64,000 bases of DNA from a virus. The stretch is taken from the IMG/VR virus record IMGVR_UViG_3300032242_002636, positions 1 to 64,000 of that record; one strand, 5' to 3'. A program made the position numbers and the translations under genes. Below are positions 1 through 12,817 of the stretch, one piece after another (within the stretch, counting starts at the first letter, position 1; every line of letters begins with the position of its first letter). The notes beneath the pieces were generated by a model that worked only from the letters and a program-made list of their open reading frames with translations, was not told the origin of the DNA and did no database searches.

Positions 1-37
1 TCTCTAGAGTAAAACTCAATACACAACCACTTTTTTC

Positions 38-66
38 TTGCAATTCTCAATAAAAAGTTATAAGAT
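38..66 (+). promoter_or_regulatory. sigma70-type promoter for the ribozyme-containing ncRNA
   Basis: TTGCAA(38-43)-17 nt-TAAGAT(61-66); TSS expected at about 72-73. Confidence 0.7.
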
Positions 67-74
67 ATAAAAAT

Positions 75-160
75 AGTCGATGTAATGCTACCATGCGCCT
101 GTCTCAAGTCAGGGGAGAGTTCGGATAACGAAGCCGATAGAAAAGCAGAGAGCATAGACT
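75..160 (+). ncRNA. Twister self-cleaving ribozyme (type P1), predicted cleavage U83^A84
   Basis: P1 75-82/153-160, UAA 83-85, P2 UGCU/AGCA 86-89/144-147, P4 CCUG/CAGG 98-101/110-113 with loop UCUCAAGU, pseudoknots AC(90-91)/GU(108-109) and CUC(103-105)/GAG(150-152), conserved GA 148-149, P5-position hairpin 121-137. Confidence 0.88.
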
Positions 161-214
161 CGTCTGGTGTTACGATACCGAGGTACACGGTGAGCATTAG
201 ACGTTAAACAAACG

Positions 215-260
215 AAATGAGGGATTGGGTATTAGTCATACTCAGTCCCTCATTTTTTTT
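215..260 (+). terminator. Rho-independent terminator
   Basis: 17-bp stem AAATGAGGGATTGGGTA/TACTCAGTCCCTCATTT followed by a T-run. Confidence 0.9.
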
Positions 261-289
261 ATTAGGTTGACTGCTTAAAAGGATAGATG

Positions 290-317
290 TTGAATATCAA
301 AGTTGTTGTGTTATAAT
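290..317 (+). promoter_or_regulatory. sigma70-type promoter (extended -10) for small ORF/purA unit
   Basis: TTGAAT-16 nt-TATAAT with TG at the extended -10 position. Confidence 0.6.
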
Positions 318-329
318 ATAAACAATTAG

Positions 330-509
330 ATGCGCTCAAAAAGGAGAGAATTGATTTCAAAACTTGGAATATGCCCACCAGAATTGGTAAAAGCATTTGC
401 TCCTGTTCGTGCTCGTATTAAAAGGGCTGTTGACAGTTGCTCTAAAACTGTTACACTAGAGCAAGCAATAGAACAAATAAAAAAATTCAATGAGACTAAA
501 ACAAATTGA
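330..509 (+). CDS. small hypothetical protein (59 aa, not in ORF track)
   Basis: MRSKRRELISKLGICPPELV...KTN*; follows the promoter and overlaps the purA start. Confidence 0.5.
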   Translation: MRSKRRELISKLGICPPELVKAFAPVRARIKRAVDSCSKTVTLEQAIEQIKKFNETKTN

Positions 510-1503
510 ACATGTAGATATTATTGTGGGTCTTGCTTGGGGAGATGAAGGCAAGGGAAAAATCTCAAGCGCACTTGCAAAGAACTATGATATGGTATGT
601 CGTTGGAATGGTGGACCTAATGCTGGTCATACTGTTTATATTGATGACAAGAAGTACAAGACTCATCTTATTCCATCTGGAGTATTTCATGGAAAGCCTT
701 CTATCATTGGTCCTAACTGTGTAGTTAATATCAGTAAATTTTGGGAGGAGATGGAATATCTTAAAGAGAACGGATTTGATACTTCTTTAGTAAAGATCCA
801 TCCTCATGCTCATATGATTACCAAAGATCATATTAAGTTTGATTTGGATTATCTCAAACCTAAATTAGGAACTACAGGTCAAGGTATTGCTCCTTGCTAT
901 GCAGCCAAGGCAAATCGTGTAGGAGTACAAATCAAAGATTCTTCCATAGATCCACAGTATTATTGGGATGGTCATCTTGAAGGAAAGATTCTCTGTGAAG
1001 GCGCACAAAGCATTTGGCTTGATGTGAACTATGGAGATTATCCTTATGTGACAAGTTCCGAGACCTTTCCTCATAATGCATGTTCTCTTGGATTCTCTCC
1101 TAAGAAGATTCGTAATATTATTGGTGTTGCAAAGATTTATGATACCAAGAGTGGAGTAGATCCTTTGTTTCCTGAGAGTCTTTGGGAGAATGAAGAACTC
1201 AATAAGATTATCGAAGAAGGCAAAGAATTTGGAACTACTACTGGTAGAAAGAGACTTGTAAATTATCTGAATATGCCAAAACTTTTACAGGCTATTAATC
1301 TCTCTGGAGTAAATAAACTTATCATCAATAAATGTGATGTCTTGGAAAAGTTAAATATTAATAAACTATGGATCAATCAGGTTCGCACCTACGGTTCCTT
1401 CGAAGAAGTAAAGGATGTAATAAGACTTTATATTTCTACAGGAAATGTTAATGGAATGAACGATTCTGATATTGTCTTTTCAGGAGATGTGACTAAAATA
1501 TAA
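490..1503 (+). CDS. purA: adenylosuccinate synthetase (short form)
   Basis: WGDEGKGK, GGPNAGHT, GTTGQGI, EGAQ, YPYVTSS, GTTTGRKR, NKCD motifs. Confidence 0.95.
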   Translation: MRLKQIEHVDIIVGLAWGDEGKGKISSALAKNYDMVCRWNGGPNAGHTVYIDDKKYKTHLIPSGVFHGKPSIIGPNCVVNISKFWEEMEYLKENGFDTSLVKIHPHAHMITKDHIKFDLDYLKPKLGTTGQGIAPCYAAKANRVGVQIKDSSIDPQYYWDGHLEGKILCEGAQSIWLDVNYGDYPYVTSSETFPHNACSLGFSPKKIRNIIGVAKIYDTKSGVDPLFPESLWENEELNKIIEEGKEFGTTTGRKRLVNYLNMPKLLQAINLSGVNKLIINKCDVLEKLNINKLWINQVRTYGSFEEVKDVIRLYISTGNVNGMNDSDIVFSGDVTKI

Positions 1504-1505
1504 AA

Positions 1506-2132
1506 ATGAGCAATTCAACATCAAGTGCATTTCATGGTCTGCCTTTCGAATCTGGAAAGCAAGGAGAAACTGTATCTGTTCCAAGCATTAGGGACTATCT
1601 AGAAGAGATTTCTAAAGATGATAATGTTAATGTTGATGAATATCTTTCCAATCCTGAAAATACAAAAGCAATAGAAATTAGGAGTAATATTAACATGCTT
1701 CCTGATATGTTACTAAATCCTAAAATGACCTATGATTGGAAAGATAGATTACTTTCGTTATGGATTCAGTTTAAAAATATAAAGTATTGTGGATATAACC
1801 CTTTTGATTTTGCTATATATCCAGAATATAATAACCTTTTCTATATATTTAAAAAATCTACTCCTTGGAATAGATTCAAATATTTTATAAGATCACAAAT
1901 ACGAGATTTAAGATGGGCATGGGATTATACTCCAGATCATATTGTTCATTATAATAAAAACAAGCCTAGAATAGGTTGGTTTGAAAATAAAATAAAAGAC
2001 TTGTTCTTTTTAAATTGGGATAATAATAAAAATCAAACAATAAAAGAATTAAAGGAAAAGGGATATCGTGTAGAAAATAATCGCATCTGGCATGAACCTA
2101 TTTCTATAAATGAGGATAAAAAAATAATTTAA
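1506..2132 (+). CDS. hypothetical protein
   Basis: 208-aa ORF directly following purA. Confidence 0.7.
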   Translation: MSNSTSSAFHGLPFESGKQGETVSVPSIRDYLEEISKDDNVNVDEYLSNPENTKAIEIRSNINMLPDMLLNPKMTYDWKDRLLSLWIQFKNIKYCGYNPFDFAIYPEYNNLFYIFKKSTPWNRFKYFIRSQIRDLRWAWDYTPDHIVHYNKNKPRIGWFENKIKDLFFLNWDNNKNQTIKELKEKGYRVENNRIWHEPISINEDKKII

Positions 2133-2137
2133 TTTTT

Positions 2138-2208
2138 TACCCGATGGTGTAATGGTAACACTTCAGAATTTGGATCTGACATTCATGGTTCGAGTCCATG
2201 TCGGGTAG
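2138..2208 (+). tRNA. tRNA-Gln(UUG)
   Basis: acceptor TACCCGA/TCGGGTA, anticodon arm TCAGA-ATTTGGA-TCTGA, GGTTCGAGTCC T-arm; no encoded CCA. Confidence 0.92.
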
Positions 2209-2209
2209 T

Positions 2210-2632
2210 TTATTTTTTCTCTAGTATATTTTTAATTTCCTCTAGAAGAATTTTCATTTCTGCTCTTTCGTCTTTAGCCTTTAAAATATAATCCAAAGCA
2301 GTTTTATCTATCCTTATATCTTCTGCTAATTTTTTTATAATAATATTAGTTTCTTCATCTATTTGAACATCATGTATTAAATGCGTTCTATCTCTATCAC
2401 TTTGTCTATTAGATGACATTAAAATCAAAGGAGTAGCATAAGCAGCCTCAAATGAGAGAAAGAGATTGAGAAAAATAAAGGGATATGGATCAAAATTTAC
2501 AATCTTAAATGTATTTAAAGCTATCCAAAGAGTCAGTAGTATAGATTGAATTATAATAAATTTCCAAGAGCCTATAAATTCGGTTATTATATCGGCTAAT
2601 TTTATTCCAAATTCTTTTAGATTGACATTCAT
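2210..2632 (-). CDS. DUF1003-type membrane protein
   Basis: FIGSWKFII...FDPYPFIFLNLFLS..AAY..PLILMSSNRQ; two TM helices. Confidence 0.85.
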   Translation of the reverse strand: MNVNLKEFGIKLADIITEFIGSWKFIIIQSILLTLWIALNTFKIVNFDPYPFIFLNLFLSFEAAYATPLILMSSNRQSDRDRTHLIHDVQIDEETNIIIKKLAEDIRIDKTALDYILKAKDERAEMKILLEEIKNILEKK

Positions 2633-2659
2633 GATAATTATTATATACTTATTTTTTAT

Positions 2660-3199
2660 ATGAATTTTAAAGATTATTATAATAGAGAAAAACCTACTAT
2701 CTATGTTGATATGGATGGAGTTCTCTGTGATTTTAAGAATCCTATTACAAAAGCATTAGGAAAAATTTCCTATGATGAAGTAACCCAAGAAGATGTTAAT
2801 GAATACTTTAAGACAAATGATGTCAAAGATTTTTTTGCAAATTTACCAAAATATCCATATTCTGACTTTTTAATTAGATTTATCATCAATAAAGTAGGAA
2901 AATATAATATCTGTTCTCGTCCAATGGAAGAATATCCCAAGCCTACTATAGAAGGCAAAAACATATGGATTGATAGGGAACTGAGAGAAAAACCAGAACA
3001 GAGAATCTTTACCTTTAATAAAGAAGATTATGCAATTTCTGAATATGCTATGGGAAGTTCAAAGCCTAATATCCTAATTGATGATTGGTATAAAAATATA
3101 GATGCTTGGAAAAAGGCAGGTGGTATTGCTATTCAATATGATGCTGATGAGGATAGTATGGAAGATCTTATAAAAAAATTATATAAGTATATGGGATGA
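2660..3199 (+). CDS. 5'(3')-deoxyribonucleotidase (NT5C, HAD family)
   Basis: IYVDMDGVL motif I, ILIDD motif IV. Confidence 0.85.
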   Translation: MNFKDYYNREKPTIYVDMDGVLCDFKNPITKALGKISYDEVTQEDVNEYFKTNDVKDFFANLPKYPYSDFLIRFIINKVGKYNICSRPMEEYPKPTIEGKNIWIDRELREKPEQRIFTFNKEDYAISEYAMGSSKPNILIDDWYKNIDAWKKAGGIAIQYDADEDSMEDLIKKLYKYMG

Positions 3200-3396
3200 T
3201 ACACGAATTTAACCATCCTATACCAGTAGTAACTCCATTAGGTGATGCTTATGTGATTTATGTAACTCATAGTGGAATGTTTGAAAATGATGTGTTCACT
3301 GTTGCTCTTTGTGAAGATGGTCAGATAAGACATTTTGCTAGTGATCAGATCAAAATGTATATAAATGCAACCTTTGGTATAGGAAAAGGTAAATAA
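3196..3396 (+). CDS. hypothetical protein
   Basis: 66-aa ORF with ATGA overlap to the upstream gene. Confidence 0.65.
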   Translation: MIHEFNHPIPVVTPLGDAYVIYVTHSGMFENDVFTVALCEDGQIRHFASDQIKMYINATFGIGKGK

Positions 3397-3400
3397 TAAT

Positions 3401-3709
3401 ATGAATAAAAAAGATTTAACCTCATTAATGGAAGCATATGATACTTTGGCTACACCAAATGAACAAAATGCTACCTCTACAGAACTCTCAACAGTTGCCG
3501 ATGTAACAACACAGACAAGTTCAGAAGGCGATACACAAGAAGAAAGAAAGAGTATGATTGATTCCAACCTTAAGACTATTGGGCAACATCTTTCAGAAAT
3601 CGAACAAGCTATAGGACAAGGACATGAAGTAGAGCCTTGGATGGAAGAAAAGATTGCAGTTGCAACAGATTCAATAGTTAGAATCGCTAATGCAATTAGA
3701 AACCGATAA
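3401..3709 (+). CDS. small late protein with KD-type leader, putative internal head protein
   Basis: MNKKDLTSLMEAY leader; TAAATA at 3390; helical C-terminal domain (PWMEEKIAVA). Confidence 0.7.
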   Translation: MNKKDLTSLMEAYDTLATPNEQNATSTELSTVADVTTQTSSEGDTQEERKSMIDSNLKTIGQHLSEIEQAIGQGHEVEPWMEEKIAVATDSIVRIANAIRNR

Positions 3710-3845
3710 AGATCCAGAAACTAAAGCTAAACAACTTCAGGAAGTCCTAAAGGCAGTAGGTGATAAACTCAGAAGTGATCCCATTCGTCTAGAGGCATAT
3801 AGAAAATTTAAAGCTAATTTTCTAAAGAGAAGATATATTGGTTAA
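3690..3845 (+). CDS. small hypothetical protein (51 aa, not in track)
   Basis: MQLETDKDPETKAKQLQEV...RRYIG* fills the gap. Confidence 0.4.
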   Translation: MQLETDKDPETKAKQLQEVLKAVGDKLRSDPIRLEAYRKFKANFLKRRYIG

Positions 3846-4358
3846 TTTTTTAATTCTGTATCTCTTATTATAAGATGATCTTTTGGTGTTTTTAGTATTT
3901 CTACCACAAAAAGTTTCGGTCTGAGAGTGACAATTAGGACAAAGCAATCTCAAATTTGATGGGAAATTATTATCAGAATTACCATCTATATGATCTACAT
4001 GTAAAGAAATTTCTTTATCCTGCCAATTCGATAGTTTACAAATTTCACACTTATATCCTTTTTTTTCACTTAAGTACTTTCTTAAAGTTTCTGAATGACA
4101 ACTTTCTCCGTTTTCTATTCTTTTTGTTGTATCGGTTTCGAATCTATATCTGCCACAACATTTATTACTGCAAAATTTTCCGTTTGATGATTTAACATGG
4201 TAAACAAACTCTTTTTTACATTGTAAACAAATAGATTCTTTACCTGTTTTTTTCCTTTTAGGATATTTCGAACCATTTAATTTAGCTGCACAAGATCTAT
4301 TGCAGAATTTTTTAGCATATTTGTTTGTTATTTCTTTATTACATGTTGCACATTTCAT
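3822..4358 (-). CDS. HNH endonuclease with N-terminal Zn-ribbon repeats (putative homing endonuclease)
   Basis: CxxC..FCxxxC repeats; CEIC...HVDHIDG...N...NLRLLCPNCH. Confidence 0.88.
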   Translation of the reverse strand: MKCATCNKEITNKYAKKFCNRSCAAKLNGSKYPKRKKTGKESICLQCKKEFVYHVKSSNGKFCSNKCCGRYRFETDTTKRIENGESCHSETLRKYLSEKKGYKCEICKLSNWQDKEISLHVDHIDGNSDNNFPSNLRLLCPNCHSQTETFCGRNTKNTKRSSYNKRYRIKKLTNISSL

Positions 4359-4409
4359 ATTAATACTTACAATAGTCTGTGTACATATTCAAATAGTCTG
4401 GGTTTTGAT

Positions 4410-4437
4410 TTGACATTTGTATTATATATGTTAATAT
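4410..4437 (+). promoter_or_regulatory. sigma70-type promoter for tRNA pair
   Basis: TTGACA-16 nt-TAATAT. Confidence 0.65.
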
Positions 4438-4453
4438 ATAAATATATAAACAT

Positions 4454-4527
4454 GGGAGGTTAGTTTATCGGTAAAACGCTTGGTTTACATCCATGAGTGA
4501 GTGGTTCGACTCCACTACTTCCTACCA
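4454..4527 (+). tRNA. tRNA-Val(UAC)
   Basis: cloverleaf, anticodon loop TTTACAT, GGTTCGACTCC, 3' CCA. Confidence 0.88.
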
Positions 4528-4535
4528 CTTTAATA

Positions 4536-4612
4536 GGAACTGTAGCTCAATTGGATAGAGCATTTCGCTACGGACGAAAAGGTTAGAGGTTCGAGTCCTC
4601 TCAGTTCCGCCA
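4536..4612 (+). tRNA. tRNA-Arg(ACG)
   Basis: GGAACTG/CAGTTCC acceptor, TTTCG-CTACGGA-CGAAA, 3' CCA. Confidence 0.95.
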
Positions 4613-4618
4613 AAATAT

Positions 4619-4647
4619 TTGACAAGTATAAAAATAAGTGATATAAT
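4619..4647 (+). promoter_or_regulatory. consensus sigma70 promoter, leaderless
   Basis: TTGACA-17-TATAAT; ATG 6 nt after -10. Confidence 0.85.
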
Positions 4648-4653
4648 AGGAAA

Positions 4654-5172
4654 ATGTCTTCGTATATTTTAACTCCAGAAATAATTCAAATATGTGAAGA
4701 GTTTGCTGAAAATTGTTTTCCTACAAATAGGATACAGTACACAAAAAGAAATCAAACCAATCCTGAAAAAATAAAAAAAGATATTAGGATTGGAAAAATG
4801 GGAGAATTTGCTGTTTATAATTTAATGTTAGAAAAGAAGGTTAAGAACATCACTAAACCAGATTTAAAGATTTATTATGAACATAATAAGAGCTTTGATT
4901 CTGATTTAAAATGTGATAACTATAATCTTCATGTAAAATCACAATGTCTAGAATCTGCATCAAGATTTGGAATAAGTTGGACATTTCAAAAAAAAGATCC
5001 TATTGTTATCAGACCATCAATTTATGATTATTTTATAGGTACAATAGTTGATGAAAAGAATAAAAAAATAGAAATCAAGCTTTCAAAACCAGTTAAAAAC
5101 TTAATTTTTGGTGAACCTGTTTTAGATATTCTTAAGAAAACAAAAATTTGTGTATATCTAAAAGATAATTGA
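4654..5172 (+). CDS. hypothetical protein, possible PD-(D/E)XK nuclease fold
   Basis: GKMGEFAV...D..SD....LHVKS pattern. Confidence 0.55.
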   Translation: MSSYILTPEIIQICEEFAENCFPTNRIQYTKRNQTNPEKIKKDIRIGKMGEFAVYNLMLEKKVKNITKPDLKIYYEHNKSFDSDLKCDNYNLHVKSQCLESASRFGISWTFQKKDPIVIRPSIYDYFIGTIVDEKNKKIEIKLSKPVKNLIFGEPVLDILKKTKICVYLKDN

Positions 5173-5196
5173 CATTTATAAAATTTCATCTATAAT
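5169..5196 (+). promoter_or_regulatory. sigma70 promoter, leaderless
   Basis: TTGACA-16-TATAAT; ATG at 5203. Confidence 0.8.
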
Positions 5197-5202
5197 ATAA
5201 GA

Positions 5203-5475
5203 ATGCCAACTATTAGAATTCCAGTACCTCTTAGAAAGATCACAAACGATCTAGAAGTTATATCAATAGAAGGATCTACTATTGGTGAAGTCTTAATGAT
5301 GCTTTGTTCAAGATATCCAGAATTATATGATAGGTTATTTGATACAGATTCAAATGTTCGTAGATTCATTAATATATTTCTTAATGATGAGGACATTAAG
5401 TTTCTTAAAGATCTTGATACAGAAGTTAAAGAAACTGATGAAATTTCTATAGTTCCAGCAATAGCAGGAGGCTAA
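5203..5475 (+). CDS. MoaD/ThiS-family ubiquitin-like protein
   Basis: beta-grasp pattern, FINIFLNDED, C-terminal IVPAIAGG di-glycine. Confidence 0.92.
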   Translation: MPTIRIPVPLRKITNDLEVISIEGSTIGEVLMMLCSRYPELYDRLFDTDSNVRRFINIFLNDEDIKFLKDLDTEVKETDEISIVPAIAGG

Positions 5476-5478
5476 TTT

Positions 5479-5829
5479 ATGAAGAAAGTATTAAAACCAG
5501 CAGAAAGAGAAGAAGCGGCTTACTATTCCGATTTCACAGGAAAGCCTCTTAGTCAATGTAGACCAGAAGTTGATCTTAAAATGTCTTTTGGTTATGAATC
5601 AAAATATGATGGAGCACGTTTTACTCTTCATTTATCAGATGAAGATGCTGATCAGATTTTAAAGTTTCTATCTACCAAAATTTCTAATGATTGTAGGAAA
5701 GAGATACAAAAGAATCTAGAGCAGCTTGATGTTCAATATGATGATGCTATGGATTCTCGTGCGTGGGGAGAGTGTGATTTACTCCACAACAACAGAGAAG
5801 TCTATAAGAAACTTCTTAACCTTGAGTAA
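5479..5829 (+). CDS. hypothetical protein
   Basis: 116-aa ORF co-oriented after the MoaD-like gene. Confidence 0.65.
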   Translation: MKKVLKPAEREEAAYYSDFTGKPLSQCRPEVDLKMSFGYESKYDGARFTLHLSDEDADQILKFLSTKISNDCRKEIQKNLEQLDVQYDDAMDSRAWGECDLLHNNREVYKKLLNLE

Positions 5830-5836
5830 GTAGTTC

Positions 5837-6751
5837 GTGCAGTTTAACGACTATTATAAAGCCAGTAACATCAATGAATGTACTTCTGTTGGTATCTCAA
5901 TAGAAGGTAAGGTTATTTTAACCAAGAACAGAGATCGTACATATTATCCTAGAATAAAAATTGTTAGAGAGTTAATAAATGGACTTGAAGTAGCCTATAT
6001 GTATGATGAGGATACTGACTATTCAGAGGGAATGAATGAAGCTCATATCGGTATTTTAAATACTACTCTTCAAGGTAAAAAAGATGAAAATGAAGGTAGT
6101 AGTAAAAACAAGGGAAAACGTCTTAGAAGATTAAGTGGTGATGGTCATAAAATTAGAACTGCTTTAGGATATACTGATCCTGAAAAGGTTGTAAAATCAT
6201 TAGATCTATTTGATAGAGGTCTTGGTGGTCATACTACTGTTGCATATGAGAATGGATTTATTTCAATTGAAAAGTTAAAATTTGGAAAACCAGTTATCAA
6301 AAAATATGATAAAAATGGTGTTATCGTAAGAGCCAATCATGGTATTGCATATCCAGATCAGGGATATCAATTTGGCAAAGATAGAGAGTCAACACTTTCC
6401 AGAGTATTTTGGGCTACCAAAGAAGCAAGACTTGCTATCAGTCCAGAAGATTTATTAAACAAAATGAGAGAACACCATCAAGGAGTTCATGGTTATCTTG
6501 AACCATATAGAACCAATTATAAAGTATGGACATCATCACAGATACTTTTAAATGTAACTGATTTACAAATGATATTTGTAGTTGATGAAAATGCTGATTT
6601 TATTGGAATTGAAGATAGAATTCCAAAAGGACATACACCTAAAATTGATATACAAATTCAGAAGTTAGAAACAAAATTTGTCACCAGAGATGCAAACTAT
6701 AAAGGTGACGAAAGAGAAAATACAGAAGATACTACAAATTTTAGCTTGTAA
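5837..6751 (+). CDS. Ntn-hydrolase (Cys nucleophile; peptidase C45/C69, choloylglycine hydrolase-like) with 14-aa propeptide
   Basis: E|CTSVG...ILTKNRD, EGMNE, RANH, S..R motifs; GTG start after TAAGTA. Confidence 0.75.
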   Translation: MQFNDYYKASNINECTSVGISIEGKVILTKNRDRTYYPRIKIVRELINGLEVAYMYDEDTDYSEGMNEAHIGILNTTLQGKKDENEGSSKNKGKRLRRLSGDGHKIRTALGYTDPEKVVKSLDLFDRGLGGHTTVAYENGFISIEKLKFGKPVIKKYDKNGVIVRANHGIAYPDQGYQFGKDRESTLSRVFWATKEARLAISPEDLLNKMREHHQGVHGYLEPYRTNYKVWTSSQILLNVTDLQMIFVVDENADFIGIEDRIPKGHTPKIDIQIQKLETKFVTRDANYKGDERENTEDTTNFSL

Positions 6752-8314: not shown

Positions 8315-10001
8315 ATTCTCCTAATTGTTCAAATACACCACCATCAGGATTTTTATCTGACTTTGGCTCATTGATATCTGCCTTGGTTGCTGGATCATAT
8401 GTACCATATTGTAAGAAGGCTATAAAAAGTCTCTTCTGTACTTCTGGGAATTGACTTAGAATACCTCTGAGTAAGATACCAGCCCATTCAATATTTGTTC
8501 TGGCTAATACTTTGGCAGCACCTTCAAATATCTTGAATACCTGTGGATCACTATTGATGTGATCATTTAGGAATTTAACTACTTCAGCTTCGTTCATTGT
8601 ATCTTCATCTAATTCATCAAGATGAACACCACTATTAACAAGTTTGTTTGCTGCTGTTCTTAGTCTTGATTTGATATTATAAATAATTTGTCCTAGTTTA
8701 GCTGTTTTAATAGTACCTCTATCTTTCTTTCCGAGATCCTTTTGTTTTAATACTTCATCAAGATTGAAATTCTTAATTTCATCTACCCAACTCATGAAAG
8801 CAGTGACCCATTTTCTACCAGTGATTTTTGCACCTCTTTCGATAACATATTTTTCAAAGGGATATTCAGGTTTTACACCACTTTGAATTGCTTTTTTATA
8901 ATCCTGAATTGCCTTTTTATACATCTTTGAAAATGCAACGAAAGCACGAGGAGAAGCAAATGGTCTTTGTTCAGATTGAATATCGGTTAGATTTTCTGTT
9001 GTGTAGAAATAATCATCTGGATTTTCCTTAATAAAGTTAATGACTCTTTCATCAACACCAACACTTTCTGCCCAATCACACCATCCATCAGGATCTACTG
9101 TTAAAATACCAATACCACCTGTCTGTCTACCTAAGAAGGCAGCACTAAGAGGTTCTGAATCAACACCTCTACCGGGGATGTTTGATGCTGCTACTATTGC
9201 AAGTCCTTGTGAAAGCTTGTCATCGGCTACTGTTCTCTTCTGAATAAGCTTGAGTAATGCACTTCTTACATCAACAGTACCTAAGTTAACTTCATCCAAG
9301 AAAATGAATCCTTCTAGATTCTTTCTTGTAATCAGATAAAGTTCCATTCCCTTTACATATTTCTGATAACCAGCTTCAGCCTTTCCTTGTTCAGGAAGAC
9401 CTTTAATATCAAGACGATCAAGTTCTGTAGCAGTTAATTCTAATACTACAAAATAGTTTTGTGGATTGTTTAATACTTCTAATTTCTTTTGTTCATCAAC
9501 TTCAGACCAATCCACATATTCTCTAACAGAAGAACCATTCTCTTCTGGTTGGTTTGCGTCAAACTTCTGTGTAGCAAAACTATAGTCACTTGGCTTTATG
9601 TATTCTCCCTTTGTTGAAGATCTTGCAATCTGTTCTGCAAATGATCTTACAGTATCACTCTTACCAATACCGGGATCACCAAGAATTAAAAGAGGTTCTT
9701 TTGTTACGAAAGCAGCATTGATTGCAAGATGTAGTGTTTTATATGACCATGTATCAAGATTAGGAGCGTCTGCAAGTGCCTTAGAAGTACCTAAATCTCT
9801 TTTGTATCCTGCTCTGGAAATAAGATCCAAATCTTCCATATCATCGGTTTCGTTAGGAGTTTGTTCAAGTGCTTTTAAATTACCACCAGCCATTTGATTA
9901 GCTTCCTGATCACTTGCAGCTTCTTTGAGAACTACTATATTAGAGAATACTTTGCTATATTCTTCCATTAAATTTTCTAAATCTTTATTCTTGATTGACA
10001 T
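8304..10001 (-). CDS. MoxR-type AAA+ ATPase with KD-type N-terminal leader
   Basis: Walker A GDPGIGKS, Walker B FLDEVN, AASN sensor, SPR motif. Confidence 0.85.
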   Translation of the reverse strand: MSIKNKDLENLMEEYSKVFSNIVVLKEAASDQEANQMAGGNLKALEQTPNETDDMEDLDLISRAGYKRDLGTSKALADAPNLDTWSYKTLHLAINAAFVTKEPLLILGDPGIGKSDTVRSFAEQIARSSTKGEYIKPSDYSFATQKFDANQPEENGSSVREYVDWSEVDEQKKLEVLNNPQNYFVVLELTATELDRLDIKGLPEQGKAEAGYQKYVKGMELYLITRKNLEGFIFLDEVNLGTVDVRSALLKLIQKRTVADDKLSQGLAIVAASNIPGRGVDSEPLSAAFLGRQTGGIGILTVDPDGWCDWAESVGVDERVINFIKENPDDYFYTTENLTDIQSEQRPFASPRAFVAFSKMYKKAIQDYKKAIQSGVKPEYPFEKYVIERGAKITGRKWVTAFMSWVDEIKNFNLDEVLKQKDLGKKDRGTIKTAKLGQIIYNIKSRLRTAANKLVNSGVHLDELDEDTMNEAEVVKFLNDHINSDPQVFKIFEGAAKVLARTNIEWAGILLRGILSQFPEVQKRLFIAFLQYGTYDPATKADINEPKSDKNPDGGVFEQLGEFAI

Positions 10002-12730: not shown

Positions 12731-12817
12731 TGGTGGGCAGAGAAGGACTCGAACCTTCGATGTCATTTAAGACGGGAAATTTACAGTCTCCTGCAATAGC
12801 CACTATGCGATCTACCC
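12731..12817 (-). tRNA. tRNA-Tyr(GUA)
   Basis: GGGTAGA/TCTGCCC acceptor, GGAGA-CTGTAAA-TTTCC, long variable arm, CCA. Confidence 0.93.

Follow-up and report, generated by a model that had tools for sequence, protein, structure and literature searches.

Self-cleaving RNAs of the type-P1 twister class carry a U–A cleavage site adjoining the P1 helix, some ten or more nucleotides in L1 and L4 with a conservation above 97%, and a P3 helix that is optional (PMC5408937). Cleavage throughout the twister family leaves a 2′,3′-cyclic phosphate and a 5′-OH (PMC5408937, PMC6154101), and in the O. sativa ribozyme the catalytic guanine G45 lies 38 nt after A7 (PMC6154101). Bacterial twisters have been suggested to process mRNAs, 3′ UTRs and polycistronic transcripts and have been linked to phage genes, while the biological role of twisters is still unknown (PMC6765202). 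For the HDV-like theta ribozymes of gut phages, a function in shaping RNA ends without host nucleases has been proposed (PMC10879173).

The DNA analysed here, referred to as the window, is the first 64 kb (64,000 nucleotides) of a linear IMG/VR virus record of 107,454 bp that is about 51% complete. Its genes for a tail sheath, a large terminase, a DnaB-like helicase, a family-B DNA polymerase and an SbcC-like nuclease, together with several tRNAs, point to a large contractile-tailed phage; this identity comes from PHROGs, since a Pfam search for Gp23 matched nothing and its controls likewise. When the sequence is read part by part, it is clear that positions 75–160 of the plus strand hold the full set of parts of a type-P1 twister (Table 1), laid out exactly at the positions given in a preliminary description of this DNA.

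Table 1. Features of the twister locus in the window. A1 is the alignment of 46 viral twisters and R1 the covariance model built from it, both described in the text.
Feature	Position	Strand	Remarks
Weak promoter-like hexamers	38–66	+	TTGCAA (38–43), 17 nt spacer, TAAGAT (61–66)
P1, 5′ strand	75–82	+	AGUCGAUG; partner 153–160; placed as P1 by the R1 alignment
UAA, junction J1-2	83–85	+	Directly after P1; predicted scissile bond U83/A84
P2, 5′ strand UGCU	86–89	+	4/4 Watson–Crick pairs with 144–147
T2 pseudoknot, 5′ strand (A90–C91), with conserved C92	90–92	+	A90–U109, C91–G108
Linker AUGC (93–96) at the place of the optional P3, with invariant G97	93–97	+	
P4, 5′ strand CCUG	98–101	+	Partner 110–113, 4/4 pairs
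Loop L4, UCUCAAGU	102–109	+	C103–U104–C105, T1 strand; G108–U109, T2 strand
P4, 3′ strand CAGG	110–113	+	Partner 98–101
P5 insert, 27 nt	114–140	+	At the optional P5 position of the Rfam alignment
AAA	141–143	+	Invariant in A1
P2, 3′ strand AGCA	144–147	+	Partner 86–89
G148 (conserved catalytic guanine position) and A149	148–149	+	G and A both invariant in A1
T1 pseudoknot, 3′ strand GAG	150–152	+	G150–C105, A151–U104, G152–C103
P1, 3′ strand	153–160	+	CAUAGACU
Hairpin module	161–203	+	Abuts P1 directly; RNAfold
Intrinsic terminator	214–264	+	19-pair stem 214–256, then 8 T; terminator scan

The single-stranded parts of the element follow those of other viral twisters closely. The UAA of junction J1-2 is found in 46/46 independent viral twisters of alignment A1, where the CC after the R16 column is invariant as well, and a linker of 3–5 nt followed by an invariant G is common to all 46 of these P3-less twisters. 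In loop L4 of A1 the U, C, C, A, A and G are invariant, and the two variable positions covary with those corresponding to 151 and 90. The two pseudoknots are formed accordingly in the window, with T1 joining L4 to the 3′ strand of L1 through three pairs (C103–G152, U104–A151 and C105–G150) and T2 joining L4 to the junction after P2 through A90–U109 and C91–G108. Both had been described as preserved through compensatory changes, which is borne out by U104–A151 in T1 and A90–U109 in T2. Pairing in P1 reaches 7/8, with one internal G79·A156 mismatch that is absent from the preliminary description. The P5 insert is predicted by RNAfold, both alone and within the whole element, to form a 4-bp stem (UUCG/CGAA, 120–123/129–132) closed by a GAUAA loop. 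When 70–266 is folded without constraints, the MFE fold is the same as that with the twister helices enforced, and P1, P2, P4 and P5 come out exactly. The ribozyme also stands out as an island of 49% GC in a genome of 33% GC.

The scissile step U83/A84 and the conserved G148 sit where homology puts them, as had been proposed. By its position, G148, the first G of GAGAG, would be the conserved catalytic guanine, an assignment based on the 38 nt that separate the A of UAA from the first G of GAGRG in minimal twisters, a spacing equal to A7–G45 of O. sativa.

Covariance models were used to check the significance of this resemblance. At gathering thresholds, Rfam finds four tRNAs in the window and nothing else. 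One of these genomic tRNA features, an 84-nt tRNA at 12734–12817 on the minus strand (51.7 bits), carries a 13-nt variable-region insertion when compared with the Rfam model; Rfam detected no tmRNA anywhere in the window. With permissive settings, the top local match is to the Rfam twister-P1 model (RF03160) and spans this model fully (1–68) with 27.5 bits and an E-value of 6.6e-4 in 400 nt, or 4.3e-5 per record, which is below the RF03160 gathering score of 67.2 bits; this score is a curation threshold and no property of the ribozyme itself. Other Rfam families gave, in 1–400, only weak hairpin matches to the terminator. Since the Rfam model cannot score pseudoknots and penalises both an absent P3 and a P5 insert, we built an independent model, R1, with nested helices only, from A1. 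This alignment holds 46 unique minimal viral twisters from IMG/VR pattern scans, which have neither P3 nor P5 and cover all four pseudoknot states, and the window sequence was left out of it. In A1, pairing reaches 98.9% in P2 and 98.4% in P4, and double changes occur at 4/4 and 3/4 of their pairs, respectively, whereas pairing falls from 83% to 29–42% in a control in which the partners are slid. R1 gives a single match in the window, at 75–160 of the plus strand, with the full model (1–60) aligned, 36.9 bits and an E-value of about 8e-10, and this match is again the only one across the whole 107 kb record. The conservation expected in L1 and L4 is intact, with 21/21 invariant A1 columns kept in the window sequence.

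Thus, all that the sequence of a type-P1 twister calls for is present, and the proposed identity stands: this is a known ribozyme class, correctly recognised, and the finding is ordinary in itself. A covariance-model hit had been named as the check on it, and here the outcome is divided, being positive for R1 and negative for the Rfam model, whose score lies far under its cut-off. This shortfall has to be taken with care as a refutation, because the cut-off loses most viral twisters and the R1 match is highly significant.

The preliminary description regarded the two pseudoknot changes as a departure from the common form, and this view does not hold. Using one pattern geometry, UAA-N4-RCC ... 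GUCYCAAGY ... AAA-N4-GAGRG, we counted in IMG/VR 107 matches with canonical T1 and T2, 73 with the U–A change in T1 only, 23 with the A–U change in T2 only, and 28 with both variants, the state of the window; all four compensated states are therefore frequent. With both positions uncompensated there were 0 matches, and with T1 uncompensated in a canonical T2 background there was 1. This lone match shares its coordinates with the canonical twister L049, so that it is a second chance anchor and no true mismatch. Expressed by pair, the middle of T1 is C–G in 107+23 and U–A in 73+28 of the IMG/VR matches, with at most 1 uncompensated, and it is CG in 25 and UA in 21 of the A1 sequences; the R16/Y36 columns of T2 in A1 are GC in 31, AU in 14 and GU in 1. 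Both pseudoknot swaps in the window are ordinary covariation, and together they make up one of four common states. The four-state counts, set against the uncompensated controls, test T1 and T2 cleanly through natural covariation. Since the features remarked on in the preliminary description turn out to be common natural variation, their interest is modest.

The same caution applies to the Rfam score. The RF03160 gathering score was reached by 0/15 double-variant viral loci and by 4/20 canonical or T1-only viral loci (from L043–L183); all four of the passing loci carry a well-formed P3. With passing rates such as these, a sub-threshold Rfam score is the rule for viral twisters and no sign of novelty, and standard annotation greatly undercounts them, because the 67.2-bit cut-off loses most of the tested loci. 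The lesson for annotation is that the RF03160 gathering score skips a whole sub-lineage of twisters that are P3-less, carry P5 and have both pseudoknot pairs swapped, and that this sub-lineage turns up repeatedly in freshwater phages rich in tRNAs.

In a set of 164 unique viral twisters, inserts of P5 size were confined to the double-variant, P3-less class (8/8). This P5-bearing class comprises two groups, A and B, plus the locus L028, and the core UAAUGCUACCA ... GUCUCAAGU ... GCAGAGAG is common to all of them and to the window. The window element has several features of this sub-lineage, namely an absent P3, a P5, U–A in T1, A–U in T2, the UAAUGCUACCA core and a terminator on its 3′ side, and over 71 nt its ribozyme body shares 86% identity with a copy from group B. 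The twisters of groups A and B and of L028 sit in tRNA/tmRNA clusters of large phages, in which every tRNA is on the ribozyme strand. Scanning metagenomes with the sub-lineage pattern gave 17 loci, all of group A or B forms, with finds in samples from freshwater lakes, among them a contig from the Trout Bog hypolimnion; a search aimed at variants with a longer P5 insert yielded group B once more and nothing else. The P1 of the group A and B twisters directly follows a conserved structured element whose stems covary, and on the 3′ side of these twisters lie a small hairpin and an intrinsic terminator. A 366-aa ORF 3′ of the twister in these two groups is not PurA, and no homology was found between the flanking proteins of the window and those of the twister relatives.

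Several further RNA elements were seen around the related twisters. In L011, L013, L014, L024, L028, L036 and L009, the conserved structured RNA occupies about 110 nt directly 5′ of the twister; its stems covary (for example ACGG/CCGU versus UCGA/UCGA around the GGCUCCAUGCC hairpin), it has a likely pseudoknot of CUGGA with UCCGG (UUAG/CUAG in L009), and none of the Rfam families reaches its gathering score on it. L028 and L029 have in common a conserved structured segment, about 100 nt 3′ of their otherwise differing twisters (CCCUGUGU ... CUCGACGGAG ... GCAGGGACA, then a U run), which looks like another RNA module punctuated by a ribozyme. A group I intron (85.5 bits) lies at 5756–5988 on the minus strand of L009, beside a tRNA and ~1.46 kb 5′ of the twister on the same strand. 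L018 has a type II hammerhead ribozyme at 8348–8412 on the minus strand, ~1.3 kb 3′ of a double-variant twister that lies on this strand too, and L111 has a twister-sister ribozyme at 789–859 on the plus strand near a canonical twister; the latter two are more cases of differing self-cleaving ribozymes clustered in phage contigs.

On its 3′ side, the window twister is followed by the hairpin and the terminator, and the fold z-score of 153–275 is −5.98. Past the terminator come a good promoter-like site (290–317), a small ORF and a PurA-like gene. The hairpin 161–203 matches no Rfam family. Its 3′ strand at 194–203 (GCAUUAGACG) nearly duplicates the P1 3′ strand, 152–162 (GCAUAGACUCG); on manual inspection, its pairing with the P1 5′ strand at 75–82 could be about as good as that of the real partner, and an alternative helix competing with P1 could form. 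The MFE folds keep P1 and the hairpin apart. On its 5′ side, the region 1–74 is 24% GC and holds no structured module, position 1 being the contig edge. No similarity to the structured module of the relatives was found in these 74 nt, the only part that could be compared since the record starts at position 1, and neither they nor the hairpin or the terminator gave any match in about 2 Mb of collected loci. No metagenome contig reaching further upstream came up in a search with exact 24-mers. Against GenBank phage records, megablast gave no match for 1–6000 of the window, and for 60–275 only chance matches of 22–25 nt were found.

Through the PurA-like gene, the window is related to seven contigs at 62–80% identity, which have tRNA arrays and a tmRNA at the corresponding place. 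Phage tmRNA genes with scores of 99–115 bits were observed inside the tRNA arrays of L003, L006 and L008, which are PurA relatives, and of L011 and L013. No twister was found within 3 kb in the PurA relatives (Rfam, E ⩽ 1) or anywhere on six PurA-relative records searched with R1 (L004 left out), whereas each of three positive-control records gave one R1 match. Since it is missing from these six records, the twister is sporadic, with no syntenic fixation.

As read from the sequence, 75–160 very probably holds a true self-cutting RNA of the twister class just 5′ of a terminator, and we consider it probable that this P3-less type-P1 twister with P5 acts as a host-independent device for 3′-end formation or punctuation. 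Counting against this reading are the sub-gathering Rfam score, the G·A mismatch in P1, the PurA relatives without a twister and the upstream 74 nt, which differ from the structured RNA of the relatives. The transcript would fold into P1, P2 and P4 plus the two pseudoknots; the 2′-OH of U83 would then attack the adjacent phosphate, giving a 2′,3′-cyclic phosphate on U83 and a 5′-OH on A84. G148 and A84 would serve as the conserved catalytic nucleobases in this chemistry, which is taken from the family. Its activity as a catalyst in vivo is our inference, as is the biological purpose it would serve.

Twister, hairpin and terminator together make up a non-coding segment that has the ribozyme at its 5′ edge, and because of this placement, cleavage would part the upstream RNA from a ~180-nt tail that contains all three. 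Since the hairpin and the terminator are arranged as in the relatives, it is the upstream RNA that is probably severed from the terminator tail, and it would thereby gain a defined 3′ end without host nucleases. The closest relatives likewise lie at the ends of non-coding RNA units, in the tRNA clusters of large lake phages. The RNA to be trimmed is not seen here, because the 74 nt upstream are AT-rich, unlike the structured RNA of the relatives, and the contig ends at position 1.

The main alternative, though an unlikely one, is that the locus encodes a stand-alone small RNA. A promoter at 38–66, should these weak hexamers act as one, would start transcription at about 72–75, and the twister would then remove a 5′-triphosphate leader of ~10 nt, leaving a ~180-nt RNA that consists of ribozyme body, hairpin and terminator, with a 5′-OH and with changed stability or handling by enzymes that depend on the 5′ end. 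The hexamers stand immediately 5′ of the ribozyme and their predicted start is the first base of P1, the AT-rich upstream 74 nt lack a structured module, and a strong terminator ends the unit while the separate promoter at 290–317 serves the next genes. However, the hexamers agree with the consensus at 8/12 positions only and fall under the threshold of the promoter scan, which did not call them, and what precedes the twister in all close relatives is a long structured RNA instead of a promoter. The record, being about 51% complete, gave no match to the RNA ligase 2 or RtcB families, which would act on such ends; for Rnl1, neither the record nor the controls matched, which renders this set uninformative. 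The fuller form of this idea, a gene with its promoter at P1 whose leader is stripped to give a stable 5′-OH RNA, and in which 194–203 competes with P1 and gates cleavage, we regard as improbable. If it were true, the twister would have a defined natural job in 5′-end maturation.

It is very improbable that the element is a decayed, inactive twister relic or a chance look-alike without catalysis. The sub-threshold Rfam score, the P1 mismatch and the absence of the element from the closest PurA relatives would fit such a relic, but the invariant positions are intact (21/21), both pseudoknots are compensated while uncompensated states are essentially absent in nature (0 and 1), the R1 E-value is about 1e-9, and the GC content departs sharply from that of the genome (49% versus 33%). 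That the region is protein-coding, through the minus-strand ORF 3–197 or the plus-strand ORF 85–207, and resembles an RNA only incidentally, can hardly be maintained, since both ORFs exist mechanically but the former has no Pfam match, the ATG of the latter is the conserved UAAUGC of the ribozyme core, and both the terminator on the plus strand and the RNA covariation among relatives indicate that selection acts on the RNA.

Taken together, the locus adds one more phage twister, probably a 3′-end-forming one, in a very simple and bench-friendly setting of AT-rich leader, ribozyme, hairpin and terminator. With the theta ribozymes of gut phages (PMC10879173) it shares the character of a small self-cleaving ribozyme in non-coding or tRNA regions of a phage; those ribozymes are, however, of the HDV-like class and lie directly beside tRNAs, whereas no tRNA was found within 2 kb of the twister in the window. 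Closer to it are the lake-phage twisters with P5 (L009, L011, L013, L014, L024, L028 and L036), which have the same core, the same pseudoknot state, a P5, a hairpin and terminator on the 3′ side, and large tRNA-rich host phages. These directly follow the conserved structured RNA inside tRNA/tmRNA arrays, in contrast to the unrelated AT-rich 74 nt of the window, whose P5 differs in sequence and is longer, whose fourth P2 pair is a proper U–A, and whose next gene is the PurA-like one that is missing there in the relatives.

With the type-P1 twisters of RF03160 (O. sativa Osa-1-4 and env22; PMC5408937, PMC6154101), the window element shares the P1-UAA-P2 order, P4 with L4, the AAA, the GAGRG strand, both pseudoknots T1 and T2, the U/A cleavage site, the position of the guanine (G45 in O. 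sativa and G48 in env22) and termini in P1. It differs from them in the middle pair of T1 (C–G to U–A) and in a T2 pair (G–C to A–U). It also lacks P3, which ~78% of annotated twisters have, and possesses P5, which ~1% have (PMC6154101); its architecture is thus uncommon, yet within the described family.
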